A DNA stretch of 62,939 bases, filler included, from Reclinomonas americana ATCC 50394 (taxonomy: Eukaryota): the NCBI GenBank assembly GCA_048213135.1. It is 6 parts of 6 records of this genome, joined end to end, with 100 filler letters (N's around TTAATTAATTAA, not from the genome) between each part and the next. Parts side by side here need not be neighbours in the genome. Positions count along the whole stretch, not along the records: positions 57,750 to 61,577 come from AFZH01016939.1; 5 more parts are not named here. The stretch is one strand, 5' to 3'. The notes beneath the pieces are model-generated. The model had not been told where the DNA came from. It saw nothing but the letters and a program-made list of their open reading frames with translations, and ran no database searches. Positions 13,646 through 61,677 of this stretch are shown piece by piece. Made by a program: the position numbers and the translations under genes. Numbering within the stretch: position 1 is the first letter of the stretch; each line of letters begins with the position of its first letter.

Positions 13646-13725
13646 GAGGGCGGCGCTTCACTTCTCTTTGCTGCTCAAACAAACTGTATGTCGATCGACC
13701 GACTGCAGCGATCTTCACTTGCGAA

Positions 13726-17858: not shown

Positions 17859-17958
17859 NNNNNNNNNNNNNNNNNNNNNNNNNNNNNNNNNNNNNNNNNN
17901 NNTTAATTAATTAANNNNNNNNNNNNNNNNNNNNNNNNNNNNNNNNNNNNNNNNNNNN
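17859..17958. other. Artificial scaffold spacer (six-frame stop linker)
   Basis: 44 N + TTAATTAATTAA + 44 N. Confidence 0.98.
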
Positions 17959-25911: not shown

Positions 25912-27047
25912 ATGGTCGCCGGAGGCAGCAGCGGAGGCGGATGGAAGGACATGCGCAACGGTGCAGTGTTGCAGGTGGCTGAGGCTGCCTCACTCGGTCT
26001 GCCCTTTGAAGTGTGGAAGACGCGCATGGGACGGTGTGTACCTCTCTCTCCACACACGCACGCATGCATTCCTCATGCACTCCCTCCCGCGTAGGTATCG
26101 CGAGGAGTCCACAGTGCAAGCACTGCGTGCTGTGTACAATCGAGGTGGTGGAATGCGTGCATTCTGGGCCGGATTCACCCCCAAGATGGTGGAGAGTGCC
26201 AGCAAAGGCGCAGTGTTCATGTACTCCAAGGAGGTCTCTCTCCCTGCCTCGCTCTCCGTTCTCCCATCAGTGTACAATGCGCTCATCTCTCTGTCTCCTC
26301 AACGCAGGCGATCCTCGCGCTCTGCAACACCGTCAACATGCCGACAACTGTGGCGGCCTTTGTTGGTGGTGCCGGTGCCGGCATCTGCCAGGTGTCTGTG
26401 ATGGCCCCGATGATGCTGCTGGTGACAGGCGCGGTGACGGGCGACAAGTCGGTGTCGACCATGCAGCGTGCGAGTCGGATCTGGAGTGCGCACGGTCTGC
26501 GCGGTTTCTACCCGGGCGGCACACCGATTGCCTTCCGACAGGCGACCAACTGGGCCAGTCGCGAGGGATTCACGGTGGCTGTGCGCCAGTTCTTGCGTCG
26601 CACGCTCCATCACGGTGACATGAATGCGCGCTTGTCGGCCCCCGAGGAAGTCTGTTGCGTCCACGAGTGGCTTTTGAGGGGAGGGTATAATTGACTGACT
26701 GCTGTGCTGACTGTGTGCGATGCAACCAGTGGCGGCGGCCATTGGTGGTACTCTGTCGTGCTGGAACCACCCGTTCGAGGTGGCGCGCATTGAGATGCAG
26801 AGTCGGGCCGATCTCGGCCAGTCGAGAATCACGATGATGCAGGTACGCTCTCGCGTGCATGCACTCTCTGTGCTGGCGGCTCCGCCCTCACCCTTGACCT
26901 TCGCTCTCGCAGTGCTTTGCTCAAGTCTACAAGGAGCGAGGAATCGCCGGTCTCTTCCGTGGTGTCCCTCCGCGCATCCTCTTGTCGGTGTGGCAGACGC
27001 TGTTCATGGTCACTGGCGGACGCATCATCAAGGAGCGTCTCTCATGA
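25912..27047 (+). CDS. YHM2: Mitochondrial carrier, YHM2-like citrate/oxoglutarate carrier
   Basis: LGLPFEVWKTRM, FRQATNWASR, SCWNHPFEVARIEMQ, GLFRGVPPRI. Confidence 0.85.
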
Positions 27048-27307: not shown

Positions 27308-28627
27308 TCAACGCGAATCGGGAGGGTGTGCGATCTTGCGGAAGTTGGGCACCACTTGCGCCACATAGTCACGCATTTGAATGACTTGCTCCTCAATCGT
27401 CCACGTGTCCGAGTACGGCATCTGTACAACCTTGCAAGTGATGGGCTCCGAGCGCTGCACATTGAAGGCGTCCAGCGCCTGCATCTGCGCCGTGAACTGT
27501 TCCCGAGGATACCGCTTCGGCAGCGTAATCTCCGTGATGACGGGGAACTTGTCCATCTCGAACAGGTAGGTGATACGGAGGCCGACGTACGACTCGGACA
27601 CCTCCAGCGGCCGCCCAATGTGCTTCAAGCAGTTCGACACAAAATCGCGCACACCATCCAGGTGCACACGCACATCAATCACCGACGTGGTGACGAGTTG
27701 CAGCGCATTCGGGTAGTAGTCCATCAGCATGGTGTCGTGATTCCAGTACGGAAGCTGCAGTGCGTATGCTGTGAGACGGACGATGGTCACTGCAATGCAG
27801 TACATGCACGACACGCAACTCGGCACTCCTCCAAAAACGTGAGATTAGGCGGGCACAAGATCCGCGTGGTCGACAGCGACGGCTTGGCGGGGTTGAAGCT
27901 GAGCAGCAGGCGCACCTGATCGGCGCCCGGCTCACCACGCAACGGCTCAATGTTGAACGGAATGAGGAACTTGATCTCGACCTCGTCACCCGTGTTGTCA
28001 AACAGGTACTCGGTGCCCGGAATCGACGACGCATACTGGAACTCCACATCCACCCGCGACTTGCCTGATCGCGACACGCGACGCCGTTGTGACTCCTGTC
28101 CACCACAAGAGTCAGCGCGCGGACACGCATGTACACGTCCTCTCTTTCTCCGATGAACACCTTGTAAAACTCGAGGACTTCCTTGACAACGGCGACCAGC
28201 GACGCGGGATTGTGCGCGTCCCACACGTCCGGCGACAGCGTACGCATGCTCTCCCACTCCACCATGTCGGCGTCGGTGTTGGCGTCAAAGATCAAGTCGG
28301 GCGCCAGCTGCGGATGCCGACTGTCGAACAGGAATTCCCCTGTGTGTGTGTACATAAGAGAGGTGAGCAAGCACAGAGAGTGAGTGCGTGTGTGCGCGGG
28401 GTAAGATGACGCAACAGCGGATGCGGCGTGTGCAGTACGGAACCTGCGTGTGTGTTGTTGTCAGCGTGAGGGGGGAAATGGTCACGCGCGTGACAACAAA
28501 AAATACTCACCTCCACCACAAAGCGGTCTCCCAGTCGTACGTCCAGCGGCTCCACCTTGTACCCTTCACGCACCAGTGCGCTGACCATCGGCCGCAGCCA
28601 TGCAGAGACCCACTCGGGCGCAGACAT
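27308..28627 (-). CDS. BABAM2: BRE/BRCC45 (BRISC and BRCA1-A complex member 2)
   Basis: DRFVVEVPYC..WEFLFDSRHPQLAPDLIF, WDAHNPASL, LPKRYPREQ, PYSDTW motifs. Confidence 0.85.
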
Positions 28628-28695: not shown

Positions 28696-31600
28696 ATGTC
28701 GGCAGGAGGCAAGAAGGCCAGCAAGTTCTTTGGCACTGCGTCATCCAGCGAGGAGGAGGAAGAGGAGGAGGAGGAGGAGTCCGACTCCGGCAGCGACGAC
28801 AGTGGCTCTGATGATGTTGCGTGTGTGTGCGCAGAGTGACAATGTCCACCCAGAGCGCCCTCTTCTCTCTCTATGTATGTCGAGCATCGTGGAGTGTGGT
28901 GGTTCCCTCCCCTTTGTGGTGCACTGTGTGTGCACTGAGTGCGGCAGTGTGAGAGGCTGTGCGTGTGAGGAGCGAGAGGACATGGCTGCACATGTACGAC
29001 AGACAAGGCGGCGGGCATGTGGACACGCGCACCCCCTCTCTCTCTCTGGTCCTCCCTGTCCGACTGCATACAGCCGCGCTCTCTCATGCACGCACACGCA
29101 CGTGCACGACTCAGAGAATGTCAGACGATGTGCAGAGATCCCCGAATTGGATCACTGATGTTGGTGCTGTGTGTGCAGATCTCTGATGAGGACAAGGCCG
29201 GCCCTGCACGTGTGAACTCGGCTGGTGCGCGCCGCGCCGTCGCGGCCATGACTCGCGACAACGACAGCGACTCTGACGATGGCAAGCGCAAGGTGCGACC
29301 GGCGTTGGAGCGCAAGCAAGACGAGATCAGGGTGAGTGCAGCGTCTTCTCTTCCTCCCTTGCGCTGCCTCTCGCGCTACTCACACTCTTGTTGGATGCAG
29401 AATCTGGCACAATCGTTGACGCGTCGCCTGGCTGTGGCACATCCGGTGTGGTCGGAGGTGTTGGAGGGATTCAATGAGTTGACGGCCACATTCTCCAAGT
29501 CGCAAAAGGTGCTCGGATCGCTGCTGCCGGAGCCGATGCTGCTGGCGTTGGCACGTCTCGAGAGCCGTGTGTTCTCCACGGACAGGAGCACCATCTCTTC
29601 GAAGCCCGACACCAAGGCCTACAACACGCTGCGACAGCGCATCAAGAAGCACAATATGAGCTTTGGTGCGGACATGGACGCCGCTCGTGCCAAGGCCATG
29701 GAAGCCGAGCAGCCGACCGTCGCAGCCTCGCGCGATGCATTGTCGCCGGTGGGTGGTGCATCGTCGTCTGGTGCTTCGCGCTCCGGTGGCGACGAGGACG
29801 GCGACGGTGACGACGACGACATTTTCGCCGATCTCGACGACGAGGACGAATTGAGCGATGATGGCGAGCGAGGAGGGGCCAGTGGCAGTGGTGTCCGTGT
29901 GCTCCGCAGCAAGTTCTTCGATGTCGGGGTGCGTATCCCTCGTCACATTTTCCCCCAGAGGTGGTGCGTGGAGACAGCTCACCCCACTTTTTCTCGTTCT
30001 CGCAGTCATCGGATGATGAAGAGGAGGAAGATGTGGCAGACGATGGCTCGAGCATGGACTCGGACTCGTCGGCGTCGAGCAAGAGCGACGGCATGGTGGA
30101 GGCCATTATGGCACGCGGTCCGATGCGCACGGCCGAGGGTCGCCTCATCAAGACCGGCATCAACTGGTTCCTCTCCGAGTCCGAGTCCGAGGAGGACGAG
30201 GAGGAGAAGAGGAACAAGAAGGAGAGGCGCGAAAAGAAGCGCGCAGAGCGCAAGGAGCGCCATCGCGCCAAGAAGGAGATCACCTTCTCAGAAGAGCAGG
30301 CCACCAAGCGCCCAGACGCGGTGGAGGAGGTGCTGACAGACGACCAAATCATCGATCGCATTGGCCAGATTTTGGAGCGCAGGAAGGTCGGTCGACAATC
30401 ACCACACACACCACACACCCCCTCCTACCTGTGCTCACCTCTCCCTCTTGGTGCACACTGCAGCTTCGCATGGACCGTCAGCAGCAGCTGCGCGCTCTGC
30501 ACTCGCTTGTGCGCCGCATCTCGTCGCCTGTGCTGGTTCTCGACGGTCTGCTCAGTCTCATCAGCATGCAATTGGAGTTCCGCGTCGGCAACGTGATGCC
30601 TCTCTCACTGTGGAAGGAGTTGAGTAGATGGAGACTGCCTGTTGGTGCAGCCATGGACTAACATTTGCTTCTCGACTCCAGTTGCTTCCAAAACGTGTCG
30701 CAGTTGATTTCCGTCATGGAAGAGCACCCGGAGGTCGTGGCTTCACGGCCAGCAGCCCGCGACGAGGAGGAGGTCACACCGGTGAGTGTCACACTGTGTT
30801 GTCATTGCACACTCCCTTGTCGCTGCGATTCTCATGGAGGTGTCGTATCGTACAGGCCCGTCGCATGGCCCGCATGAAGGGCAGCCTGGTCAACTTTGTG
30901 GAGCGCCTCGACGACGAGTTCACTCGCCTGCTGCAGTTCACCGATCACCACTCGGACGAGTACGTGGAGCGTCTCGAGGACGAGTATTTCCTGGTGGACA
31001 TGCTGGAGCGTGTATACGAGGTTTGTGTGCATCATCAGCTTGGCGCGTGTGTGCGCGATTCCTCTGACTCAATTCTTTCCCGTGTGACTGCAGCTGCTGG
31101 AGGGCGAGGGCACGGGTCCGGAGCTGCGCGCCAACCTGGCCTCGCGTCTCATCGATCACATTTACTACAAGCGCATTGAGGGCTACATCAAGGCGCTACA
31201 GCGCCAGAAGTCGGTGGTCGGTCAGGCTTCCGAGCGTGCCGCTCAGGGTCTGTACACCGACACCCACGAGAACCGCGACGGCGACGCCATGCCGGTGCGC
31301 ATGCCGTCGGAGGCCGTCAGCGAGAATTCGGCCGACAACAAGGACGACAGCTCGGAGGCGGCGGGTGCCTCTGCGGCCACCACCCTCAGCATCCTGCTCG
31401 GCGAGCAACCGCGCACCAAGCGCATCACGTGCGTCACGAGAAAGAAGTGATGCGAGGTGATGGGCGTCTGCGCTCACCACATTTTCTCTCTTTGTGCAGT
31501 GCACGTGCCGGCCGACTTGGACGCACACTCACCGAGGATTTGAATCAGACTGTAATGGCGCTGTCACGAGTGGTGTTCCAGTTTGCGCTGGACCGTATCA

Positions 31601-33113
31601 AGGCTCGCGTCATTCTCCAGCTGGCCTACCACTTGGCCGTGCACGATCAGTTCTACGCCGCACGCGACATGTTCCTCGGCAGCCATGTGGGTGACGGTAT
31701 CCAGCACTCGGACGTCAATATGCAGATCCTGTTCCACCGCACCACTGCACAAATCGGTCTGGCCGCGTTCCGCATTGGCCTCCTGGAGGATGCTCATGCA
31801 GCGCTGCAAGAGATTTGCTCCACCATGCGCATGCGTGAGTTGTTGGGACAGGTGAGGAATGCGACACCGCTGGAGTTTCCCTCTGTCTCCTTCTCTCTTC
31901 TCTTCTCCTCTCTTTTGTGCCTCCTCTTGTTCTCCCTGCATACCGCAACGAGTCAGTGCTGCATCCACTACCTCCATGGTGCAATCGTGTTAGTGTTGCG
32001 GTACATCAATCCCCTCGCGATGCCGTTGTCTGTTGTGCGCGCCGATTGCGCCTTGTCGGTTATCGACGGGCGCGTTTGGTAGCGGCAGTGGACTCCGTCT
32101 ATTTTATAGATGGCGGCATTCTGTTGAGGCTGCGTCACGAGGCCGAGCTCCGCTTTTGTGAGAGACTGTCCACTGTATGCATTTCCCTTTTTTGAGTGGC
32201 CAGTCTGCCTCTGTGGGCAGCGACATCCTTTTTCTTTCTTCTTCAGCACTTGTTGCTGAGATCTGTTGCGCAGGGCCAGCAACGGTTCGCCGAGCGCACA
32301 CCGGAGCAGGAGCTGAAGGAGCGCCTGCGTCTGGTGCCGTTCCACATGCACATCAATCAGGACACGCTGGAGGCGTCGCATCTGATTTGCGCCATGCTTC
32401 TGGAGGTGCCTGACATTGCCGCGCATCCGCACGACGCCGGCAAGCGGCTGAAGAGCAAGGCCTTCAAGCGCCTGCGTGACCACTACGACAATCAGATGTT
32501 TACCGGCCCGCCAGAAAACACGCGCGATTACATCAATGCGGCGTCGCGTGCACTGCTCAAGGGCCAATGGCGCGAGGCATACGACCTGCTGGCACGCATG
32601 CCATTCTGGGCCCTCGTGTCGAATGCGAGCGCGACTCAGGAGCTGCTGAGAAGGTCGGTCGCCACATGTGTTTGTCCGACAAGTCTCTGCCACTTGCATG
32701 TACTGAACATTTTTCATGATGCAGACATGTGCAAGAAGTCGGTCTGAAGGCATTCCTGTGGACGTACGCCACCTTTTACGAAAACATGGGCCTCGATCAC
32801 ATGGCTGAGCTGTTTGAGTTGCCGCCGAATGTGGTACACCGCACCGTGTCGAAGATGATCTTCACCGACGACTTTTCGGCCTCGTGGGACCAACCAAACA
32901 ATCTGCTGGTGTTCGACCAAGTACGACCAGCACGTCTGCAGTACCTGGCCAGCCAGTTTGCCGACGAGACGGTGAAGATGGTGGATCAGAACGAGCGTCT
33001 CTTGTGCCAGCTGTTTGGCACACCCGGCGGTCGCCAGGATGGTGGCAAGGGCGATGGCGAGGGCAAGGACGGTCGTGGTGACCGACGTGGAGACCGCGGC
33101 GGCCGCGGTGGCC
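28696..33113 (+). CDS. EIF3C: Translation initiation factor eIF3 subunit c, 3' end in gap
   Basis: Acidic N-term KFFG..SSSEEE; VERLDDEFTRLLQ, HIYYK, PFHMHIN, GPPENTRD, PCI domain VSKMI..ASWDQ. Confidence 0.96.
31941..32008 (+). ncRNA. Intronic H/ACA guide hairpin predicted to target LSU rRNA helix 69 Psi2258 (yeast numbering; snR191/U19-like)
   Basis: Basal stem TACCGCAAC/GTTGCGGTA; pocket strands GAGTCA (31950-55) and GTTA (31989-92) complementary to UAAC-Psi-A-UGACUC; ACATCA (ANANNA/ACA) box 14 nt from the pocket; inside the 422-nt eIF3c intron. Confidence 0.75.
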
Positions 33114-33213
33114 NNNNNNNNNNNNNNNNNNNNNNNNNNNNNNNNNNNNNNNNNNNNTTAATTAATTAANNNNNNNNNNNNNNNNNNNNNNNNNNNNNNN
33201 NNNNNNNNNNNNN
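33114..33213. other. Artificial scaffold spacer
   Basis: N44-TTAATTAATTAA-N44. Confidence 0.98.
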
Positions 33214-35501: not shown

Positions 35502-35574
35502 TCCCCGATAGTCTAGGCGGTTAGGACAGTAGTCTCTCACACTGCAAACCCGGGTTCAACTCCCGGTCGGGGAG
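35502..35574 (+). tRNA. trnE: tRNA-Glu (anticodon CUC)
   Basis: Acceptor stem TCCCCGA/TCGGGGA, D loop with GG, anticodon stem GTAGT/ACTGC with CTC at 35536-38, T arm CCGGG-TTCAACT-CCCGG. Confidence 0.95.
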
Positions 35575-35680: not shown

Positions 35681-38662
35681 ATGTCAGGCATCCCATCGTC
35701 TCCATCAGGCGGCGCCGAGCGTGTTCCCATGCTTGCGCGCTATGGCGAGGATGAGGAGCACAGCTCGTCGGCGTCTGCAGCTGCTGATCGAAGTGGAAGT
35801 GGAGGAGGAGGTGCAGGAGGAGAGGCAGCAGATGGAAGTGCGATTGGAGACGAGCACCCGCTGCCGTACAACAGCATCGCGCCTGTGTTGACGTGCCCAG
35901 TGTGCTACAACATCTTTGCAGTTGAGCATTTTGACACACACGCGCGCGCACAGAGAAGCAGAGTATGTGTGAGAGAGGCATAAGTGCGCACGCACGCACG
36001 TTGATGCGCATTGTGAGAGACAGCCGTGTATGATGTGTTCTGACGCATTCCCCCGCTTCTCTTGTCTCTACTCATTGCTTTGCTGTCAGCAAGATCAGTT
36101 GACACACAGTGCACTCCTCCTTGCCCTCTCTCACTCTGTCTCTCTGTCTCTGGTGAGATGAGTTACATCCCTCTCATTCCCCTTGCACTTGTCTCTCTCT
36201 CTTCATAGTTTGCTGTCAGCAAGATCAGTTGTCACACTCCTCTTCCCTCTTTGCTTCCTTGTCCTCTCTCTCTCTCTGGTGAGATGAGTTACACACCTCT
36301 CTTTCCCCTTGCACTTGTCTCTCCTCATTGTTTTGCTGTCAGCAAGATCAGTTGGCACACTCTGCTCTTCTCTCTTTGCTTCATTCTCTCTCGCTGGTGA
36401 GATGAGTTACACACCTCTCTTTCCCCTTGCACTTGTCTCTCTTCCTCGTCTTGGTGTCAGCAAGATGAGTTGATTGCTCTTCCCTCGTTGCTTTCTTCAC
36501 TTGTCTCTCCTTCTCGTCAAGATGAGTCGCACACCCTTGTCTCGCTCTGTTCACATGCTTGTCATCTTCGATGAGAGGTGCAACTGCTTTGTGCGCGCAC
36601 TTCACTCACTTGCGCACTCTCCCTCCCTCCCTCCATCGCTTGCGCAGGATCCTCGAGGTGTGTGACCAGTGTCGCTGTTGTGCTTGGTTGTCATTTGCGT
36701 TGCTGACGGTTGTACCCCAACCAGTGTTGCCGTGCGGTCACTCGTTCTGCCTCGAGTGCATTCGAGCCATGTGTGCGTTTCTTCTTTCGTTGCCTGGCTT
36801 GTGGATGACTGACCACCACTTACGCGCGCTCTGGTGCAGTGAAGCGACAGGCGCTGCACTGCCCGATCTGCCGCACAGTCCACATGTACAACGCGTCCAC
36901 CTTTCACCGGTTTGTCAGTCCCGCGCATGCGCTAGTTGCTCCTCTGTGCTCCCCCTCACTCAGCGGTGTGCATGGATGGTCAGGCTACCCAAGAACTACA
37001 TTGTCGTCGACCTCATCGATCGAGTGCAAGAGACGGCAGGCTTGTCGGTGGTGCGTCTTGCTGTGTTCTTGTTGTGTTGTTGTTGTTATCTATCGCGTGT
37101 TTCTCATGAAAAAACACAGCGGGCACTCGGTCTGCAAAGTGAGGCGGCCAAGGCCAGTCTGCGCGACAGCAGCATGGAACCAACCTTGTATCCGTCGCTG
37201 CGCGCGTATGTAAACTACGACCAAACGTATCCACGGCAGCTCGAATTCAACCCGGTGGTCAAGGACCAGTTGCTGTACGGCACACTGACCGGCGAACTGG
37301 TGCTGTGTGACGTGGGCCGACAGGAGGAGCTGGGCAGGCAATGGATGGGGTTGCGTTGACAGTCACTCTGCCATCCTCTCACCTTTCCCCTTCTCACACT
37401 GCTGCTGCAGGTCCGCGGAGGGCGCACAAGACTGCGTCCTCGGAATCTCCTTCCTCAAATCCACCCCCAACAAGGCCATTGTGGGCCTGGCCAAGGGACG
37501 CATCTCGATGATTGACTCGGAGCTGCTGAGAGATCCACACCAGAAGTGTGCGCTGCACGAGTACGAGCCGTTTGAGCGGCTGACGCACATTTCCACCAAC
37601 TCGCTGGACACGCAGTACCTTGTCTGTTGCGTCAGCTTTTGTTATGTGCGTGTAGCTTCTGCCCCCTCTCACAACGCACACCAGGCGGCGGCCCCACCGG
37701 TGTCAAGATCTTCGACATTGAGACGTCGGCAATGGTGCACTCACTAGAAAACATTCACCAATCCAACATCAACATCTCGCGCTTCGCCAACAACACGCCG
37801 CACTTCTTTGTCACCTCCAGCTTTGACGGATCTATCAAGTTCTGGGACATGCGACGATCAACACGCGAGCCCGTGTACACGCGCTACTCGAGCACCAAGG
37901 TGCTGATGGTGGCGTGGTCGCCGGACGACCAGTACATTGCCTCGTCGGCCACCGACAATGATGTGCGGCTGTACCACTCCATGTCCGGCAATCTGTTGCA
38001 CCAGTTGCGTTCTGCGCGGCCGCGATGAGAGAAGTATGTTTGCTCATGCGTGTCTTGATCTCTCTTTGGCAGGTACGGCATCCCCAAGCTGCGGCACGAT
38101 CGCAACTTTACTCGTTCGTACTTCCTGCAAGACTCGCAGTACTTGGTGTCGGGAAGCTGCTGTGAGAGGTAACGGAACATCTAGAGATGCGCGCGACGCG
38201 CTCCATTCCCCTCGCTCACTTTGTGATGTGACAAACAGTTTGATCCGCGTCCTCAACGTCCGCACGGGCCAAGTGACCTGCCAGATTCCAGTGGACGGCG
38301 AGCACGGCTCCGAGTCGCTGTGTGCGTAGTGGACCACGTGCACACACACAGTCCCTCGCTCACTTGCTCAATCCACAGACATTCAAACTCTGCGTGGCGA
38401 TCCGGTGACTCCCCGGCGCTTTGCCGTCCTCGCCTCGTAGTTGCGTCGCAGTACACGCGCACGAGTCTGGGCACAGCGACCTGAAAACAACTGCTTCCTG
38501 CACAGCGCCGAGCACGACCACCCCAACGAAATCATTGGTGTGGACCTGGAAGACAACTGGGACGACGTGCCCGCTGCAGGAGGCAGCGGAGCAGCAGCAG
38601 CAGCAGCAGCAGCCGCTGCGGCCGCGGCCTCTGCCAAGAACGGACCGCCCGGTCGTCCTTAA
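35681..38662 (+). CDS. RING-HC (C3HC4) plus WD40 protein, probable E3 ubiquitin ligase
   Basis: Spliced [36 protein letters not shown]; WD repeats TSSFDGSIKFWDMR and WSPDDQYIASSATDNDV. Confidence 0.88.
36060..36530 (+). repeat. Intronic minisatellite, about 118-130 bp unit, about 3.5 copies
   Basis: TGCTGTCAGCAAGATCAGTT at 36081, 36211, 36334 and a variant at 36452; CTGGTGAGATGAGTTACA..CCCTTGCACTTGTCTCT recurs three times. Confidence 0.9.
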
Positions 38663-41686: not shown

Positions 41687-44600
41687 TCAGTACATGAACC
41701 GAGAGTGCGCCGTGTCAAGCACATCGGTTCCGTCGCCGAAACGGTCGATCATCGACTGCACCATGCCGGCCGGCGTGGCCGGGTAGTTGACCAACTCGGC
41801 GTCACCGCGAGCATTCAGGCGAGTGTTGGGCTGTACAAACACACGACGCGGCTTGCGCTGCGCCAGCACAATCCGTCGCAGGTCGGCAAACTGTGGTGGC
41901 ACACTGGTGACCTCGTCGTACAGCGCCTTGGCACTGTCAAAGTCGCCAATGCACTTGTAAATGTGCAGGCGTGCGAGGAAGTCGCCGACAGCTGGTCGGC
42001 CGACCTATGAAGAAAACAAAGAAGACACTTTGTCAGGCAAAACGGCCACTCTCCGTGAATAACATTGATCATGAAAATGCGGGCACGCACCGAGATGATC
42101 TTTTCGCGGTCCAGCTCAATGGTGACATCGTTGCCGACTTGCGTAATGGTGACGAAGTCCTCGCCGGCGTTGAGCAGAATGCGCAGAATACCAAAGCGCG
42201 CTTGCATGTGCGCCTGGTTCCAGTTGTTGGTGGCTGGGTCGTAGAACTCCAGAGCCATCATACCCGCTCGCGCCATGATCATCCAGTTCACGTAGAAAAT
42301 GTCCTCGGCCTCCTCACCCTCGTGGCCAAAGATCCGCAGAATCTCCTGCTCCACGCACAAGTAGATACCGACGCACTCGGCGCGGCACTCCTCGTACGAG
42401 GAGGAGATCACCGGGAACTTGGAGCTCCACGTCTCTGTGCGCACCAGAAGCACCAGTGTTGGTGCACAGGCGACGGCCACCAATGCTGCATACACAACTA
42501 CACACTCTCGCTGACTAACCTCCTTTCCGGTAGTAGCTACGGATCGGCTCATCGGTGAACGGGTTGATGACAGTGCTGGCGTCGAAGTTCAGCGACCCAT
42601 CCTCGGTCTCGCACAGCAGCTTGCCGGTGCCGTGGCCCAACAGCTCATGCAGGCCCACCTGCACCTCGAATGCCTGCCACGAAAAATGGATGAGTCTCAC
42701 TGTGTCTCACCCAATCTTCCCTGCGAGTTGTTTACCTGGCCGGCATACTGCTGGAAGAGCACCTGATCGTCCTCCTTGAGGAAGGTGACACGCTCGCGAG
42801 TGTTGAAGCTGGAGGCGAGCACGTTGCCGAGTGCCACGTTCTTGAAGCCAAGCGTCTGTCGCACGTCGTCGTAGTTGGGCAGGTTGATGCCCGACGGGAG
42901 GCCGGACGAGGCAAAGGTGAGCACCTCCAGCGACGTGAAGTCGGGCTTGGTGAATGTCTCCTTTTCGAACTCACGACCCCTGCATACACGCTGCGTCAAC
43001 ACACCGACATTGTTCGCGTGCACACGCCACTGCATCTTCTGAAAACGTACCACGGCAGCAGCGGGATGAAGCGCTCGGCCGAGGCCACCAGCGCGCCAAA
43101 CTTTTGGCTGACAACCTTGTTGACGACCGACACCATGCCCTCGAACTCGCCGCGCACCTGCAAACGCAACAAATAAGCGAACTGCGCAAGGCGGAGACTT
43201 GCTTTGTGTCAATACGTGGTCGCGCAACTGCCAGCGGATCGCGATACGACTCGATGAAACCAATGGTGGTCTCCACCGCTGGACCCACATCCTTGATCCA
43301 GAAGCGCTGCGCATCCTTGTGCTTCTCCACGTCGCCACCCTCAAAGTGCTCAATGTACTTTTCGATCATGGCCTTCTCGTAGTCGTTGGCTGTGTGTGTG
43401 TGTGTGTGTGTGACACACACGTCAGCAAGCAAGATGAAGAAGCTGCGCTTGTGCTGGCGCGACAAACCCGCATACTGCTGCGCCTGCTTCATGTGCTCGA
43501 CCACCTTGGACAGCATCGGCGAATGATCGCCCCACAGGATCATGATGCGCACACCCTCATACATGTGCATGCGCGAGTCCGATGAGCGGGCCGACGCCAC
43601 GTGAATGCAGTACGACATGCCCTCCAGCTCCGGATCGTGCTTCGACACGCGGGTGTTGTAGGCGCTCATGTTCTGCTCCTCCAGGAACTTTTGAATGAAC
43701 TGTGCATCCTCCTGGAAGCAGTCGGCCGAGTAGTAGGTGGAGATGCCGTTCTCGCCGAAACCTACACCGACGACAATCGTGAGAAGAGTTGGCCACGAGA
43801 CACATCCATCTCTTTTCCCACTCACCGAGGCGGAGCTCGTACGGATCCAGAGAGTACATGCGATCCTTGCAGTCGTACCACAGAGTCGACACCAGCTGGT
43901 TGCCGCGCAGCTCAATCATCTTCTCCACGCGATCGGGCGCCACCGACGGGATGAACTTGACGTCGCCAAACGACTTGTAGTTGCCCATGTTGCCGAGGAA
44001 GGTGGCCGCATAACGCAGGAACGCGTCAAACTCCTCCTCTGTCAGATCCTGCACGTGGAAAAAGCAAGTCAGCGACCACAAGCGCAGTTGGCACAGTCGG
44101 CAGCGGCCGGTCGCAACTCCACGACGAGTGCATCGCACGCGCAAGTCCTCCACGCCCTCGCTGTAGAGCGCCAGAATGAGCGCAAAGATCACCGGTGATT
44201 CGGGAGACGTCTGGAACAGGCAGATCTTGCTGCCTTCCCACGCCGCCTGCAGTTCATCACATCACCATCAGAGAAGAGAGAGAGAGATGGGCACGATAAA
44301 CGAACTTGAACTCACCTGCGAAAAGTGATGCGCGTACAGCTTCTCTTGCTGTTGACAACACAACGCACACACACATAGTGAGTATCCTCTCGCCCAGAAG
44401 CAGCGCGACAGGCACCCAGAGGGAACACGATTTTTTTGGGTTGGGCGGGAGAGTGCGTGTGAACGGTTGGTGTTGATGGCACACGAAATGTCCACGACTC
44501 ACACGACACGCACACACGCGCCAAGATCACGCTCATGATACACACACAGAGACAGAGAGATGGAGAGAGAGAAAGCAAGTGCAACATGCAACTCTGTCTG

Positions 44601-45014: not shown

Positions 45015-48000
45015 CTACACGCTGGCATGAGTGGAGACAAAACCCTCCAAAAACACCGCCGTGAGGCCCTCGCCAGGCAACGACCACTTCTCGTACGTCT
45101 GTGCATCGTTGGCGGTGAACATGCGGACCAGTGCCGGCAGCTCGGAGCTGGTCAAATGCACTTGACGCTGGAAGAACTGCACGAGCGAAGCAAGTGTATA
45201 AGGCACAAGATAAGCAGCGAGGCAACCGTTCCCCACTCCACGCAACATCTTGATGCCGCTCAAACAGTGCGTACACAAAGCCGACTTTGCTTTGCTGTTG
45301 TGCGCGCTTGGCCATCTCGACAAACAGGGCGTCGTTGTCGAGGTGCGCTTCCTGAATGACGAGAATCACCAGCACCGGATAGAGCTTGCTGAGCGAACCG
45401 TACGAGACCGGAGTCAGCTCAGGCACCGTCGGATCGGCCATGGTCTCCATCCACTGGCGCAAGGCGCTCTCGTCTGCCGCCGGCCCGCAGAACACTTGCG
45501 GTGCCTCGCCAGGACGGATGGCCACTGCAAGTGGGGTGCAGCCTTCGGGTGCCGAGGCGCTCATGACTTGCAGCAGGGTTTCGATGGATTCGATCGTCGC
45601 GAAACGCACTCCACGTGTGCGCATCGAGCGTGCGATGCGATCGAAATTGGACTGCACATGCATGAGCACGCGTGGGAAACGACGAGCACGGCACGCAGAC
45701 AGACGCACCATAAGCGGGCTATTCGGATTGCCAACCGCCACGGCTTGCACAATGCCCTGTCGTCGGGGCTTCCATGTGCTCACCGCCTCCAGCGTCATGG
45801 TCTCCACCGGTGGTCTGCGTGGATGAGCGAAGGAAGGAGAACGACGTCAGCATCTGCTTCTTCCGACACGTAGAGAGAGCGAGGTGTTCTGTCACAGAAC
45901 GCAACTGCGTCATGCGCACACCAAAGGACAACAGGTCGCCCTTGGAGCGATCACCTGCGCGCTGCTGTGTCAGCGCAACACACAACTCACGCGTGTGAGT
46001 TGAACCAGCAGTACTCACCCTGGTAGTCCGTGTACACTCCATTGCTGCGCCATTTCAGCGTCGGGAAGCTGCGCACACCCAACTGTTCGCACACATCCTG
46101 GGCCACAGTGCAATCGACCTTGGCCATGGTGTATGTCGGCGGTGCCTCCTTCGAAGCGTCAATGAAAATGGGCATCAAGCTGAGCACGCACAAGGGAGAG
46201 AAAGAAGAGAGAATTGAGTTGTCTTGTTTCAGGGACACTGCGCAAAGGGATACACAATCCTCACCGCTTGCAGTGACCGCTGCCGACGAAAGCCAAATGA
46301 GACAGGGTTTAGTCCAACAAGAGATCACGCGCAGGCCCTCAAGAAAACTCACCACCACGGAGCAATGCTGCGCCGCGACAACCACCATATGAGAACAGGA
46401 ATCGCTGAGAGGAAGGGAAACATGCAGAGCACGCAACAATTCGATAAACCACTCGCCAGTGGCACTCGATGCGTAGTCGGCGCTGGTGAGCACTCTGACC
46501 TTGCTCGCAGCATCTTGCTCTTGTTGCTGCTGCTGCTGCGGTGGCTGGATGGCCATGCGCGTGGCGGAAACCACTTGCGCCGCGATCCAAGTGCTGACTT
46601 CGCCAAGCACAGGCTGTCCCTCGTAGTCGCGTTCCATCGGACCGGACTTGAAGCGCAGCGTGGGGAAGCCGGACACACGCTGCTTGTTGCACAGTTCTGC
46701 CTCCCCCCAAAAAAAGAACACGATACACATCAGCCCAGGCGCGACTTCACCACGTCAGCGGCAGTCTCTCCAACGACGAACCGGCCTCGGTGTCACAATC
46801 GATCCGACTGAAGCGCACACCCGCAATCTTCTTGTTAATCAGTGACTCGAAGAAACCGTCGACTGGTCCGCAGGACTGCCAACAATACGTAAGTCACGGC
46901 GACACCAAGCAAGCGAGAGGCAGTGTGCCATGGCACGAAACTGGGCACGGGGATATCGCGAAGAAGAGGAACCACGAGCCGTTGGCTGTCTCGCTGGCAA
47001 AATTCGATGACGTCAGCCGCTCGCCATGTACTATCGTCTTCACTACAGCCGCCGGCGGCGGCGTCGCAATACCAGCACTGCAGTGCGGTACAATTAAGCT
47101 TATCGCAATCAATAGAATATCGATGCACAATAGGGTGGGTAAACAACGCAACGCCGCGAGCAGGCTGTTGGCCTCGGTCAGCAGGTCGTCCTTGCTGCGC
47201 CCACGCGTGTAATCCGCGTACTTGCCGGCAGACTTGGTCTTCACAGTCGGGTACCCCTGCACATCTGTTCACCCGCCCGCACATACACAGTGAGCACTGG
47301 GAGGGTCGAAGCGCGCCAGTGTAGGTGCGTAACTCTTGAGACGGCACAGCTCCGTGTGTCGCGTGCAGTCGACCTTGGCAAACGTGACTCCGGGTGGTGC
47401 CTCACCAGCAGCCTCCACAAAGATCGGCATCAACCTACGAGAGCAACAGTGGGGGTTGAGATTTGCACACCGCAGACGTAGAAAATCACTGCGTTCCACA
47501 CCTCTGGCAGTGACCACTGTTGCAAGTCAAACAGAAAATTATGAGTGCGAGAACGACACGCGAATGGCCGAGATGGCAGAAACATACCACCAGGGAGCAA
47601 TGCTGGTGATGGCGATGACAATAACACGCAAGGGAGAGAAGGAGAATGACACTAGTCAGTGGCTACGTTGGAAGCAGTGAGACTGGCAGGTAAGTAGCAC
47701 GCACAATTCGATACTGCATTGAGAGAAAAGCAGAGGAACACGCGGTCAGCGCGCACTGCAAAAGGCAGCACGACGACAATGATGGCAACACATGTGACGC
47801 AACATCCACAGGCCCTCATTCGTGCGCCGCTCATAGTCGTCGGCCGCGAGGTCCACGACAGGTGACCGACCGCCTTCGGTGACAGGCACGTCCTGGTGAG
47901 GACTGGGTGCGGCCGACGGAGCAGGCAGTGGTGCCAGTCCCATCTTTTCACGCACAAACGACAAGAAGCCGTGTGTGGAGCGTTCGCTGTTAAATGCCGC

Positions 48001-50265: not shown

Positions 50266-51277
50266 ATGTCGGATATCATTCGCGCGTTCATTCAAGGCGT
50301 GTCGCCTCTGCTGCCGCCTTACACTGCGGACCAGGGATGGCCGGCGTTTGCACTGTTCGCGTTTGCAGTGGCCAACGTGGTGCGACTGGCGGTGTACAAC
50401 GGGCAAAAGTCGGAGGCGACTCTGTGGGCGTTTCTGCAAGTGTTGCGTCTCGCTGCGTGAAATGCATGTCGTGAGGGAATCAAAAATCGTCACATAACAC
50501 ACACACACACACAGTGTGATTGCGGGAAGCACGGGTGCGACTCTGGCGCCGGTGTTGTTGGGTCGCATGCCGGCGTTGTTCACTAGCAATGCGCTGATGT
50601 TTTGGTTCATTGCCGCCTGGTGAGCATGTGGCCGCATTTTCGCATGCGCCTGCTGTTGTCTCATCGCGGGAGTGACGCAAGGTATCTGATCAACTTTGCG
50701 CCCGGTGACATTGTGTTCCACGTCACGCGCTCGCAGCCGTTCCGCGTCGTTGGTGGCATGCTGGTCGGCATGTTCCAGGCGCGCGCCATTGCCTCGGCCA
50801 TTGATCTGTATGTGGAGATTGAGGGTCGTGGCTACGTGCTGCCGTCGATTCTGTTGGGCGTCGTTGCGGGAGGCACTGGTGGGCTGATGGTGGCGGCGTT
50901 GCGCAAGCTGCGCGGGCAGGTGGCGGTGTCGGATTTGACGCGCCCGTCGCTGTTGCGTTGGTGTTCTATGCTTCCTCGTGTTGTTTTGCGGGCATTCTCA
51001 CATCCATCCCACACCCAGTGTGTACAAGGCGGTGATTCTGGCCAGTGTCATCTACGCGCTGCGCATGTTCTACGCCAAGCTGCTGCCGTTTATCGGCAGC
51101 TGGGAGCTGATCGAGGTCATGAGGCTGAACGCGTTGATTATGAGCTCGGCGCACCTGTGGTCGGTGCTGAATGCGCCCAACCCGCCGCCGATCGGTGTCA
51201 AGCCAATCGTCGTTGCGCCGGTGGCACCTGCGGCGCCTGCTGTCGACGGCGCTGCTGACGGCCTCAAGCGCGACTAA
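50266..51277 (+). CDS. TRIC (TMEM38-like) intracellular cation channel
   Basis: GATLAPVLLGRMP..FWFIAAWYLINFAPGD, GVVAGGTGGL, DLTRPS; multiple TM segments. Confidence 0.75.
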
Positions 51278-53134: not shown

Positions 53135-53234
53135 NNNNNNNNNNNNNNNNNNNNNNNNNNNNNNNNNNNNNNNNNNNNTTAATTAATTAANNNNNNNNNN
53201 NNNNNNNNNNNNNNNNNNNNNNNNNNNNNNNNNN
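53135..53234. other. Artificial scaffold spacer
   Basis: N44-TTAATTAATTAA-N44. Confidence 0.98.
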
Positions 53235-55568: not shown

Positions 55569-57568
<2,000 letters not shown>

Positions 57569-57649: not shown

Positions 57650-57749
57650 NNNNNNNNNNNNNNNNNNNNNNNNNNNNNNNNNNNNNNNNNNNNTTAATTA
57701 ATTAANNNNNNNNNNNNNNNNNNNNNNNNNNNNNNNNNNNNNNNNNNNN
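57650..57749. other. Artificial scaffold spacer
   Basis: N44-TTAATTAATTAA-N44. Confidence 0.98.
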
Positions 57750-58106
57750 AGAATGAGGAACGGAAGAGGGTGTTGATCAACCACGTCACACATGCGCGGT
57801 GCGCTCACACGAATCAATGACACGTACACATGCACGCGTGAGACGATCCTCACTCAGAGGAGGGTGAAGAGAGAGAGAGAGGAAGAGAGCAAAGAGTGCG
57901 AGAATGTGACGCAGATGGGCGCGAAAATCAATCACAACGAGAATGCAGCGCACACAGGCACAGGCAAACAACGAGACGCACATGCACACGCGCACGCGCA
58001 GCAATGTTCACTCGGAGGAAAAAGAAGAGAGGGGAGAGAGAGAGGAGAGAGAATTCGAAGGAATCATTTCTGCGATCAATGCACACACTGCAAGAAGAAA
58101 TCTTTC

Positions 58107-58137
<31 letters not shown>

Positions 58138-58496
58138 TTCTTTCTCTCTCTCTCTCTCTCACAACAACAACAACACCTTTCATGCAACAACGAATCGAAC
58201 ATGAGTCCTTTTCGCCTCCCGCGTCCCTCTCTCCCTCGCTCGCGCATTCTCTCACGCCCCGCACTCTCTTCCTCACTCATCCATGACACGTGACACAGCA
58301 GGCGACCATCAAAACACGGGCGTGCTGCAGAAATAAAAGAAAGAGACGGCGGATGTCCTGCATGACATTGATCTCCGGTCACGCACAGCACAACGTACAC
58401 CGCCGCGAGAACAAGCCTACCGTGTGTGAGACGCGTGAGCAACAAGGTACATCGTGCTGAAGAGCGAGAAAAGAAACAAAGAACTGCGACGAGAAG

Positions 58497-61400
58497 ATGT
58501 CGGTGAGTTGTTGATTGAGTGGGGGACGCGTGTTGTTCGCTTGCTTCTCCTTGTCTTCTCTCTCTCTCATCGCTTGTCACTTACCGTCCTTGTGGGCGTG
58601 GGACAGTTCTCTGTGAATGTGAGTGCGGCGCATGATTCATCGCTGTCGGTGGTGGTGGAGGGCATGACGGCCATGTCCACACTCGCGGACTTGCTGTGCG
58701 AGGCCACTCGCTTGCTGCGTGAGAAGAGTGGAGATGGGGAGATGGAGATTGTCGGAGTGGAGAAGCCTGTACCATACAAGATCGCCAAGGTTGGCGGAAT
58801 GGAGCTGGAGGATCTGGGCATCAACTTATCCACTCATCTTGTTGTCCGTCTGACACTTGGCGTGGCGCTGCAGTCGACTGGAGGCAGTGGGAGTGAGAGT
58901 GGAAGGTATGCGTGCGAATCATCCCTCTGTGCAAAGCGTACATCTCACTCGCATGTCTCCGCACAGCAATTCAGAGCGAGTGACTCGGTTTGTTTTGCTT
59001 GCCGTTGTCATCCTTCTCTCTTCCTTGTTCTTCCACTCGAAGAGAGTCTGTGCTGACTGTGTCTTCCACGCACGCAGCATGATCAACTCGCAGCGCATCC
59101 ACATGGCCTTTGAGGTGGTGGAAGAGGCCGTGCGTCTGCGCTGTCAACGTGCACTGGCCCAGTTCAGTCGCGATCATTTCGACTTTGATGTGCGGGCGTG
59201 GGCAGTGGACCTTTGGTCTCCACGAATGCAGCCAAGTGACGGGAAGATATGGCGTGAGCGACATGCACCAATCAAGGGATGGCAGGTCAGAGTTTACAAA
59301 GAGGCTCAGCCGCAGCTGATAAGCTTGCGTGCTGCCTTCGACTCCGATCCAACATCCGACCCTCCATGCGACGGTTTCGACACAACGGCACTCGCCTCCA
59401 TCATGCTGTATGGTGGGTTTGTTCAGGATGGCGGTCGCAAGCTGTTGCTCATTGACGATGCGGACGAACGCAGTGCTGTGGAGGAACTGAATGACGTGAG
59501 GAAGGGGATGGCGCACGGCTCGTTGGGGTTTTCTGATGTCACTGTGCAGCAGTACCTTGGTGACCGTGGTGTTTTCCTCTCCATCCTCTCTCGACTGCAG
59601 TTGACGGCTGACGAGCGTGCTCGATTCACTGCTCGTATCTGCGAGGCACGTCACGCTCGTCACATCGTGGACACATTCGAGGAACGACTTCATCGACTGG
59701 CGGTGCGTGAGCTGTCTTTCTACCAGCACGATGAGAGTGTGCGCAAGGACATGCAGATGTATGTGCCGCTGTTGTGTTCCCGTGATCGCGACGTCTCCTC
59801 GAGAGACAAGATGACGGATCTGTTGACGGAGGTGGATGCCTTCCTCGCCGACAGCAACTCCACCCAACGTGTACTGGTGCTCTTTGGCAACAGCGGAGCC
59901 GGCAAGACCACCACCATGTCGGTGCTGGCCGAGCGAGCTTGGCGACAGTGGCAGACAAGGGAAAGCAGACGAGTGCCTGTGCGTGTGCCTCTTGGTGCTC
60001 TGCGCAATGCTGATGAGCGATTGTTGGAGGAGGCACTGGAGCGACTGTCACCCGAGTTGGGATTCAGCGAGGGGGATGTGCGACGGTTGAAGGAGGAACC
60101 GCTTCTGTTGTTGCTCGACGGATACGACGAGTTGTACCGTGGTGTGAATCTGTTTGTCAAGAACCAGCTGGATGTGTGTCGCGATGTGAAGGCGATTATC
60201 ACCTGTCGTGAGGATTACGCTCTGACGGCACTGGGTGGAGCGGCGCAGTATCGACGGTACTTTGCTCCGGTGGATGCACGCGGACAGTTGTGCATGCAGC
60301 AGCTGATGGAACGGCACATTGCACCGTTCAACAAGGAGCAAATTGTGCGGTATCTGTTGCTACTTGTGCAAGATGGTGATGATGATGATGACGATGATGA
60401 AGTGCGATGGTCGACTGTTGCTGATTACATTCATGCATTGAAGAGTGTGCATGGACTGGATGCACTGGTGTCGAATCCGTTCCTGCTGGCAGTGGTGGCT
60501 CGTGTGTTGCCGCAGTTGGTTGCGAGTGATGTGCAACGACCAACTCGGTGTGATGTGTTTGACCGATTCATACGACAGTGGATTGTGAGGGAGCAGGAGA
60601 GGCAGACACGTATTGGTGCAGAGCGTGTGCCAAGTGAGGAGACGTGTCTGGCATTCTGTGAGGGACTGGCGCGGTTGATGCATGAGAGGAATGCGGTCCG
60701 TGTGTCTGTGACGGAGAGTCGGTCAAGCGATGTTGGAGAGGAGGAAGACTTTGGCGGTGCCCCACTTTCCGTCCGACGAGTGGAAGAGGGACCGTTTGAC
60801 AAGTTCCTCGGTCACAGGAACCAATATGTACGAGTGTGTTGTCCGATTGTGCGACGGTATGGGACGACGGAGTGGGGATTCGTGCATCTGTCGTTGCTGG
60901 AGCACTGTGTGGCACGTCATGTGTTTGCGTGGGAGACGTGGGATGAGGAGAGGCAGTTGACGATACAAGATGTGCAGCAGCATGTGCTGGCAGTGCGACT
61001 GCTGAATGATCGACCGTCATTGGTGGAGCAGATGGCCGAGGTGGTGCGACGGTCTCCTCGATTACAAGCAAGGCTGTGGGCGGTGATTGAGATGTCACGG
61101 GAGGTGGATGAGGAGCGAGTGGTGACGGCAGCAGCGAATGCGGCGACGGTGTTGTGTGTGGCACAGGTGTCGTTCAGTGGGCGGGATCTGTCGGGTGTGC
61201 GAGTGAGGGGTGCGGATTTGAGGGATGCTGTGATGCATAGGACGGTGTGGAGAGGAGCGGATATGCGTGGGGTTAATGTATGCATGGCGTATGCGAGGGA
61301 GGCGGATTTCAGGGAAGCGGACGTCACGGGTGCGAAGTGGCCGACTGACCTTGTTAAAAATCATGAAGGTCCAGTGTTTTCTGTCGCGGTTGCTCTTGAT

Positions 61401-61577
61401 GGTCAGTACATTGTATCCAGTAATGTGAAGATGCACTGCGACAGTTGGTCATGCAAATCGGAGTCTCTACTTACATTTCGCGACTTGCGCAAGACACAAC
61501 TTTTGCCCCACACTCGGGTTAAGGGTCAAGGGCCCAGGAAGCCAACGGTCAAGAGCAAAGGGTCAAGGGTAGGGTGT
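58497..61577 (+). CDS. NLR-like STAND protein: ubiquitin-like domain, HEPN-like domain, NACHT, pentapeptide repeats, start of WD40; 3' end unresolved
   Basis: Walker A GNSGAGKTT (59886), Walker B LLLLDGYDE, ITCR, NPFLL, FVHLSLLEH, AAANAATVL, DLSGVRVRGADL, HEGPVFSVA; three 5' GT-AG introns keep frame from ATG 58497. Confidence 0.88.
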
Positions 61578-61677
61578 NNNNNNNNNNNNNNNNNNNNNNN
61601 NNNNNNNNNNNNNNNNNNNNNTTAATTAATTAANNNNNNNNNNNNNNNNNNNNNNNNNNNNNNNNNNNNNNNNNNNN
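61578..61677. other. Artificial scaffold spacer
   Basis: N44-TTAATTAATTAA-N44. Confidence 0.98.

Follow-up and report, generated by a model that had tools for sequence, protein, structure and literature searches.

The window analyzed here, the whole stretch of 62,939 nucleotides (filler included) from Reclinomonas americana ATCC 50394 (assembly GCA_048213135.1), consists of six contigs chained by five N44-TTAATTAATTAA-N44 linkers (ten N44 runs). Because it is a chain of separate contigs, genes on either side of a linker are not genomic neighbors. The gene of interest lies on the plus strand of the fifth contig (AFZH01016939.1; positions 57750 to 61577, 3.8 kb). It is a real eukaryotic gene, incomplete at its 3′ end, that encodes a switch protein of the NLR/STAND type. 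A preliminary description of this DNA had proposed that a ubiquitin-like (Ubl) domain, a HEPN RNase domain, a NACHT module, pentapeptide repeats, and WD40 repeats are joined in one protein. With some reserve, we favor a reading in which a 3′-truncated STAND/NLR-type gene carries NACHT, pentapeptide, and initial WD40 segments behind a probable HEPN domain and a possible Ubl domain. RNase-armed NLRs are already known as a kind of protein; what is new here is a very divergent HEPN-like domain, perhaps with a Ubl domain, on a NACHT-pentapeptide-WD40 chassis of the Mortierella type.

A 3′-incomplete NLR/STAND-type gene

A three-exon gene model is plausible from splice sites, phase, branch-like motifs, and codon usage (Table 1); exon 1, with its six bases, is conjectural. 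Both proposed introns are of the GT-AG type, with CTTAC or CTGAC motifs upstream of CAG. In these features they match the four introns of a protein kinase gene elsewhere in the window, which, read by eye, are ~60 to 85 nt long and have GT donors and a CTNAC-like motif 15 to 25 nt before a CAG acceptor. Exons 2 and 3 stay in frame because the AG at the end of exon 2 and C59078 form one Ser codon. Should intron 1 be retained, exon 2 would have its first in-frame ATG at 58661. The exons of the preliminary description were retained with their ends corrected by one base, which puts the last base of exon 2 at 58905 (donor GT at 58906 to 58907) and that of exon 3 at 61419 (possible donor GT at 61420 to 61421), and an open frame of 780 codons was confirmed between 59079 and 61418.

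Coding potential was scored with a codon table built from 19 stretches with Pfam support in the window's other genes (1522 codons). Exon 3 had a log-likelihood of +0.119 per codon in its own frame and exon 2 one of +0.267 per codon in the frame that joins it to exon 3, with negative values in the other five frames of each. All six frames were negative in 58439 to 58606, in intron 2, and in the 157 bases after 61420. The GC content of third codon positions (GC3) was 0.66 in exon 2, close to the 0.61 of exon 3; that of the housekeeping set was 0.78. The contig ends 158 bases after exon 3, and its last ~60 bases contain a GGTCAAGGG-like repeat.

Table 1. Features of the gene of interest and of the rest of the window (positions count along the whole window; residues are those of the exon 3 product)
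Feature	Positions	Strand	Remarks
Putative mini-exon 1, ATG TCG ahead of GTGAGT donor	58497-58502	+	Hypothetical, inferred; phase matches exon 2 after removal of the 104-nt intron
Putative intron 1, 104 nt	58503-58606	+	GTGAGT donor, CTTAC branch-like motif, CAG acceptor
Exon 2, ~99 codons (P0002: 58607-58903, 99 residues)	58607-58905	+	Candidate ubiquitin-like domain
Proposed intron 2, 172 nt, phase 2	58906-59077	+	GTATGC donor, CTGAC branch-like motif 24 nt ahead of CAG acceptor
Exon 3, one open frame	59078-61419	+	P0001 is 59079-61418, 780 codons, no stop
Probable HEPN-like all-helical domain, residues ~1-175	59079-59603	+	hhalign; best-supported core, residues 66-171 (59274-59591)
Candidate catalytic Rx4H motif RKGMAH, R141-H146	59499-59516	+	Inside every weak HEPN match
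Helical linker, residues ~176-217, no relatives	59604-59729	+	Outside the P0004 BLASTP alignment (which starts at 218); helix prediction of low confidence
NACHT NTPase module and helical/winged-helix continuation, residues 218-690	59730-61148	+	Pfam NACHT 59868-60152, Walker A 59886-59909, Walker B 60105-60131
Pentapeptide repeats, residues ~697-752	61167-61334	+	Best Pfam stretch 61173-61271; aligns with the corresponding P0004 segment
Start of first WD40 blade, residues 760-780	61356-61418	+	Homology to the start of the P0004 WD40 array
Probable intron start (GTAATG) or degenerate sequence up to contig end	61420-61577	+	Gene truncated; N-linker from 61578
(CT)n microsatellite, ~60 bases	58100-58160		~340 bases upstream of the putative start codon
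Purine-rich low-complexity sequence	57850-58060		
NDR/LATS-like protein kinase gene	56191-57470	-	Four short introns
DPP3 (peptidase M49) exons	41818-43915	-	Animal DPP3 proteins are the top database matches
RabGAP-TBC exons	12501-13004	-	Pfam
KIF1-binding protein exons	13718-14959	-	Pfam
GST exons	25063-25572	+	Pfam
Mitochondrial carrier exons	26095-26691	+	Pfam
BRE exons	27311-28460	-	Pfam
eIF3c exons	28969-32744	+	Pfam
Thioredoxin exons	45990-46754	-	Pfam
TRIC channel exons	50587-51255	+	Pfam
tRNA-Glu, anticodon CTC	35502-35574	+	Sole Rfam match over the gathering score in the window
Linkers	17859-17958, 33114-33213, 53135-53234, 57650-57749, 61578-61677		N44-TTAATTAATTAA-N44

The larger part of exon 3 is a NACHT-pentapeptide-WD40 chassis. 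NACHT (Pfam PF05729) matched residues 264 to 358 with 35.2 bits (cutoff, 26.7 bits; E value of 1.4e-8), and both the Walker A motif (GNSGAGKT at residue 270) and the Walker B motif (LLLLDGYDE at residue 343) are intact. The pentapeptide repeats of the preliminary description were recovered by PF00805 in two stretches, the best at residues 699 to 731, with 26.8 bits against a cutoff of 20.2 bits. The other 15 families in the Pfam list were P-loop look-alikes or weak matches below their cutoffs. A NACHT-pentapeptide-WD40 protein of the Mortierella/Mycoavidus type (P0004) was used for comparison, and the exon 3 product (P0001) aligned with it collinearly over residues 218 to 776 (BLASTP; E value of 1e-55, 29% identity), a span that takes in NACHT, its helical continuation, the pentapeptide segment, and the start of the WD40 array. 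The earlier assignment to the STAND class was right: NACHT and pentapeptide repeats are both present, and homology backs the beginning of a WD40 array. Two of its details hold in part. The NACHT module, called complete, is above the cutoff, and Pfam covers profile positions 1 to 99 of 167 alone, the rest being supplied by the BLASTP alignment with P0004. The first WD40 repeat is recognizable as an alignment of residues ~766 to 776 with the start of the P0004 array, with no Pfam match to WD40 in the ~20 residues that the contig retains. Beyond the NACHT core, the helical part contains an insertion of eight Asp residues and one Glu residue (60375 to 60401; residues ~433 to 441 of P0001), which the aligned P0004 lacks.

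Twelve relatives of the chassis are 1366 to 3900 amino acids (aa) long (best E value of 1.2e-41; 22 to 29% identity; query coverage of ≤75%), and three more measure 429 to 1365 aa. The named ones are Mortierella proteins and one Glomeribacter-type endosymbiont protein; SAM domains occur in one EukProt entry. Mortierella/Mycoavidus-type proteins (P0004 and the ARM_5-bearing P0003, P0005, P0006, and P0012) share the same collinear order of NACHT, helical region, pentapeptide repeats, and WD40 with residues 218 to 776, at 28 to 30% identity. They differ in what precedes it: the relatives have long N-termini of 470 to 900 residues, with ARM_5 in at least 4 of the 12 (Pfam, best 25 families each), and their Walker A motif falls at residues 365 to 909 in the 11 relatives in which the pattern was found. 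No locus related to P0001 was found in a search of genome contigs, and tblastn found no paralogue of exon 2 or exon 3 elsewhere in the window.

When genomes were scanned with P0004, 77 loci were obtained, with many copies in metagenome-assembled genomes (MAGs) of Mycoavidus cysteinexigens. In these MAGs (L001 to L011, L014 to L016, L020, L032, and L068), many copies were full length and had 60 to 86% identity to P0004. The many endosymbiont copies of a family that is also found in the fungal host Mortierella suggest gene exchange between Mortierella and its Mycoavidus endosymbiont.

The N-terminal region of exon 3

The N-terminal ~175 residues of exon 3 probably form a HEPN domain that is of the Swt1/DZIP3 kind, though highly diverged, and that carries an Rx4H motif. 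Several weak matches converge on this stretch. Pfam HEPN_Swt1 (PF18731) matched below its threshold, with an E value of 0.071 for residues 1 to 245 and of 0.033 for a 124-residue cut; residues 129 to 158 aligned with profile positions 74 to 102 of 115, and the family was the better of just two Pfam families obtained for the N-terminal region at an E value of ≤10. The sole PADLOC model listed, CARF2--CARF_HEPN, matched residues ~127 to 162 through the HEPN end of the model (E value of 0.019). In a feature search of the ESM Atlas, where scores below 0.9 are leads only by the tool's own calibration, an HEPN_Swt1 cluster ranked first (0.81) and an HEPN_DZIP3 cluster ranked second (0.78), and 9 of the 10 best family-bearing matches belonged to one family or clan. 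The Rx4H motif of the preliminary description was found exactly where it had been placed.

For profile comparisons, bacterial Swt1-type HEPN domains were gathered with PF18731 (E value of ≤0.001), which had matches in 45/401, 13/401, and 36/401 genomes in three phyla; in four single genomes, HEPN_Swt1 was found in none (0/4). Seven loci that were below the cutoff or likely near-duplicates were excluded, and the resulting profile of 67 domains represents three phyla, with an effective number of sequences (Neff) of 5.5. Aligned by hhalign with a profile of 30 cyanobacterial HEPN domains, the region scored 25.8 (P value of 0.0013; 26 columns). Shuffled queries scored 12.6 on average (150 shuffles; standard deviation [SD], 2.4; maximum, 21.5), with 0/150 reaching 25, and the reversed query scored 11.3. 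With the 67-domain profile, the score was 29.5 (P value of 3.7e-4) over 92 columns and query residues 66 to 171, at a probability of 36% (52% for residues 61 to 215), which is below the usual level of proof. The corresponding controls had a mean of 12.55 (200 shuffles; SD, 2.37; maximum, 22.8), with 0/200 reaching 25, and a score of 15.2 for the reversed sequence. The open reading frame (ORF) of P0001 ranked first among the 190 window frames of ≥130 aa with either profile, scoring 29.3 against 17.6 for the next frame with the 67-domain profile (mean, 10.8; SD, 2.5) and 24.7 against 19.9 with the 30-domain profile. The score rose with the more diverse profile, as that of a true remote relative does.

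The hhalign alignment is collinear over three helices. D-T-T-A-L-A-S-I-M is matched with D-x-S-A-L-L-x-x-M of the family, E-R-S-A-V-E-E-L-x-x-V-R-K-G-M-A-H is matched with E-R-x-L-V-S-E-L-x-x-x-R-N-x-W-A-H, and the next amphipathic helix aligns too. A greedy alignment was likewise collinear, pairing residues 1 to 180 with profile positions 3 to 147. Rx4H is present in 66 of the 67 members of the Swt1-type family; the residue after R is N in 51 of these 66 and K in at least one.

Several results weigh against a HEPN domain. HEPN_Swt1 reached 13.8 to 14.9 bits against a Pfam cutoff of 27.5 bits, and HEPN_DZIP3 (PF18738) was not listed at an E value of ≤10. For residues 1 to 245, phmmer gave 0 matches at an E value of ≤0.001 among 1,835,955,588 representatives and 0 at an E value of ≤10 among PDB sequences, and NCBIfam gave 0 families for the N terminus. 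The hhalign probability is only 36 to 52%, and the confident core is still centered on the motif. A sequence of such composition would contain ~0.67 Rx4H motifs in 245 residues by chance, so that only the context around the motif is informative. A single-sequence AlphaFold2 (AF2) model of residues 1 to 245 consisted entirely of helices at low confidence (predicted local distance difference test [pLDDT] of 43), and a Foldseek search of the PDB with this model returned nothing at an E value of ≤0.001, its top rows being unrelated helical proteins; at such confidence, the structural check suggested earlier carries no weight for or against the HEPN fold. The HEPN_Swt1 hidden Markov model detected no HEPN signal in the 12 long relatives of the chassis, and because these lack the domain, they lend the assignment no family support. 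The HEPN domain of the preliminary description accordingly stands as a set of convergent sub-threshold matches on one stretch, short of the Pfam cutoff (14.9 versus 27.5 bits) and of a confident structure.

These results can also be accommodated if the first ~217 residues form an orphan helical domain that is unrelated to HEPN and resembles it by chance, for example an adaptor, a coiled-coil oligomerization piece, or a lineage-specific effector. The N-termini of NLRs are known for their variability, and ARM_5, SAM, or other N-termini are found in the nearest relatives of the chassis. Every HEPN match lies under its curated threshold, the motif occurs at chance frequency, phmmer found no homologues, and the predicted fold is not confident. 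Chance resemblance is nevertheless hard to reconcile with the choice of one family type at the same residues by four independent model sets, with an hhalign score that 0/200 shuffles and 0/189 other ORFs of the window approached, or with the growth of both score and aligned length as the profile became more diverse. We regard an unrelated domain as unlikely, though as an alternative of some weight, and retain a divergent HEPN domain as the probable identity of this region.

Exon 2 and the start of the protein

The upstream exon 2 is in phase with exon 3 and may add a small ubiquitin-like domain, an assignment that we make tentatively. In the ESM Atlas search with exon 2, ubiquitin/Rad60-SLD clusters were found at ranks 6, 15, 27, and 29 of the 30 matches listed, with scores of 0.85 to 0.87 (leads only), and the top five matches were without a family. 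The AF2 model contained strands at residues 2 to 7 and 13 to 18, a helix at 23 to 41, and strands at 45 to 48 and 82 to 85, which is the β-β-α-β..β order of a β-grasp fold, at a low pLDDT of 42.8. An hhalign alignment with five ubiquitin-family sequences (Neff of 1.6; from 4/391 genomes) was collinear from end to end and statistically unsupported.

Its score of 12.5 (P value of 0.13) fell inside the range of 150 shuffles (mean, 9.8; SD, 2.0; maximum, 17.3), which counts against a Ubl domain, as do the 0 Pfam families obtained for exon 2 at an E value of ≤10. Foldseek returned no match to the low-confidence exon 2 model at an E value of ≤0.001. Of the β-grasp domain proposed earlier, the part that holds is an in-phase, apparently coding exon; the fold itself found no backing in Pfam or hhalign.

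Exon 2 might instead lie outside the protein, which would then begin at the ATG at 59079 and have the order HEPN-NACHT-pentapeptide-WD40 without a Ubl domain, 58607 to 58905 being 5′ untranslated region or a chance open frame. Exon 3 has this ATG as its first full codon, which makes a shorter protein free of exon 2 possible. Bacterial Swt1-type HEPN proteins likewise start directly at the HEPN domain, and the greedy alignment places residue 1 of exon 3 at profile position 3. In addition, exon 2 has no family match, the proposed exon 1 contributes only 6 coding bases, and long open frames are frequent in a window of 58% GC, which holds 190 stop-free frames of ≥130 aa. The coding score of exon 2, on the other hand, is positive solely in the frame that joins exon 3, its GC3 resembles that of exon 3, and both of its flanks score as noncoding. 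It has a donor, an acceptor, and a CTGAC branch-like motif, with an exact fit of phase, and its Atlas recognition value of 2465 exceeds the 2300 mark that 91 of 100 real proteins reach. A protein without exon 2 therefore seems to us rather unlikely, and we keep the exon in the gene model.

Related systems, proposed mechanism, and implications

NLR/STAND proteins with RNase effectors have been predicted in many invertebrates and in bacteria. PMC3710099 describes animal proteins in which DZIP3-type HEPN domains are joined to NACHT, Death, CARD, LRR, and TPR, and it notes that DZIP3-type HEPN has expanded in Nematostella, oyster, and Capsaspora; it also lists CXorf38-type HEPN domains (Swt1 group) fused to NACHT and Death and bacterial fusions of N-terminal HEPN to STAND modules. 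NLRs with an N-terminal HEPN domain are described from nine invertebrate taxa (PMC8662601), many coral NACHT proteins have an N-terminal DZIP3-like HEPN domain and carry LRR or WD40 repeats (PMC10236652), and HEPN appears among STAND/NACHT effectors (PMC8195603, bioRxiv 10.1101/2022.07.19.500537). The architecture was not recognized in the preliminary description; its core idea, an N-terminal HEPN domain on NACHT with C-terminal repeats, is published for animals and bacteria (PMC3710099, PMC8662601, PMC10236652). For the exact string Ubl-HEPN-NACHT-pentapeptide-WD40, no description was found in the paper listings and passages covered on HEPN-NACHT-STAND proteins, NACHT-pentapeptide-WD40 proteins, and DZIP3-like HEPN NLRs.

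In domain order, the gene, with its probable HEPN domain, is like the HEPN-NLRs of corals, molluscs, and other invertebrates, whose published order is an N-terminal DZIP3-like HEPN effector, NACHT, and C-terminal LRR or WD40 repeats, and the second rank of an HEPN_DZIP3 cluster in the Atlas search adds to the likeness. It differs from them in that Pfam HEPN_DZIP3 has no match here at an E value of ≤10, in that the nearest relatives found for its NACHT module are fungal, endosymbiont, and EukProt proteins and not animal NLRs, and in that its NACHT is separated from WD40 by a pentapeptide segment and possibly preceded by a Ubl domain at the front of the protein. The sole described protein that we encountered with both Ubl and HEPN in one polypeptide is sacsin (PMC3710099, Table 1), a giant chaperone-like protein without NACHT in which the Ubl domain is N-terminal and the HEPN domain far C-terminal; the Ubl domain here is a candidate. 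The best sequence match for the N terminus, below threshold, is to bacterial Swt1-like HEPN domains (PF18731) of the Ava_2192 type, which is fused to an AAA+ ATPase. Both have the D-x-x-A-L helix, the E-R-x-x-V-x-E-L...R-x-x-x-A-H helix, and the amphipathic helix that follows, and in both the HEPN domain precedes an NTPase. The bacterial proteins differ in their partner, an AAA+/DUF499 ATPase, in their restriction-modification contexts (PMC3710099), and in mostly having N after R where K stands here. The Mortierella/Mycoavidus-type proteins, which share the chassis, show the Swt1-type HEPN signal in none.

The preliminary description took K after R as a possible sign of reduced activity. K occurs naturally at this position in at least one bacterial Swt1-type domain with a full motif, and because it is found within the family, it is not a strong argument for inactivity. 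A real HEPN-like domain that is catalytically dead and acts as an RNA-binding or oligomerization module, signaling rather than cutting, as proposed for the HEPN domain of eukaryotic Swt1, would fit the replacement of the N found in 51 of the 66 Swt1-type motifs, as well as Table 1 of PMC3710099, in which the eukaryotic Swt1 HEPN dyad is inactive and the motif is "partly conserved" in the Swt1-like group. R and H are both present, however, together with the A-H ending of the family (RKGMAH versus R-N-x-W-A-H), and where a STAND protein has HEPN as its effector, the domain is generally taken as an active RNase (PMC3710099, bioRxiv 10.1101/2022.07.19.500537). We judge a dead domain to be improbable. 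Still further from likely is a pseudogene or assembly artifact without a functional protein, for although the 3.8-kb contig ends in a short repeat and the 3′ part of the gene is missing, the 780 codons contain no stop or frameshift, both Walker motifs are intact, and the codon bias is frame specific.

HEPN RNases work as induced dimers, and in STAND/NLR proteins the repeats sense ligand and NACHT oligomerizes. By analogy with these proteins, a ligand would bind to the WD40 propeller, possibly with the participation of the pentapeptide β-helix, upon which the NACHT module would exchange nucleotide and oligomerize. The N-terminal HEPN domains would thereby be paired, and their two Rx4H motifs could form a composite, metal-independent RNase site. 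Cleavage of cellular or viral RNA would then lead to growth arrest, cell death, or virus restriction; the Ubl domain, if real, could act in regulation or docking. RNase L and Ire1 (KEN) offer a functional analogy alone: in these proteins, ligand-driven oligomerization unites two HEPN domains, the switch is a kinase or pseudokinase and not NACHT, and no sequence match to them was seen. The RNase L analogy for HEPN-NACHT proteins is also drawn in PMC3710099.

The other contigs of the window carry exon-bearing ordinary eukaryotic genes with short introns, recognized by Pfam as RabGAP-TBC, KBP (KIF1-binding protein), GST, mitochondrial carrier, BRE, eIF3c, DPP3, thioredoxin, TRIC, and an NDR-type kinase (Table 1). 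One DPP3 exon matched 1064 proteins at an E value of ≤0.001 among 1318 candidates; among the matches listed (best 120), the named ones were almost all animal DPP3 proteins, with 54 to 68% identity. Taken by itself, this similarity hints at an animal relative or an early-branching animal. Generic WD40 exons at 37594 to 38013 (plus strand) and 23028 to 23285 (minus strand) were considered as the lost 3′ part of the gene and were not accepted; they lie on other contigs and have 25 to 42% identity to the P0004 propeller.

It is conceivable, though doubtful, that the gene represents an orphan lineage of HEPN RNases, preceded by a Ubl domain, on a chassis otherwise seen in Mortierella and bacterial endosymbionts, in a host whose DPP3 is closest to animal DPP3. 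To our knowledge, none of the eukaryotic NLR/STAND proteins with RNase effectors has been experimentally tested, and a NACHT-switched HEPN RNase could be conveniently modeled with a compact gene that has few introns and comes from a microbial or early-branching eukaryote. The value of the finding is moderate because it concerns one truncated gene with a probable domain call. It would add a data point on how freely fungi, endosymbiotic bacteria, and animal relatives swap the immune effector domains on a single sensor chassis, and the extreme divergence of the N terminus, with zero phmmer matches, shows how such effectors evade routine annotation. If the reading is true and the host is a unicellular relative of animals, RNase-armed NLRs would have arisen before or outside Metazoa, or would have been reassembled independently by domain shuffling, with a Ubl handle that no described HEPN-NLR has.

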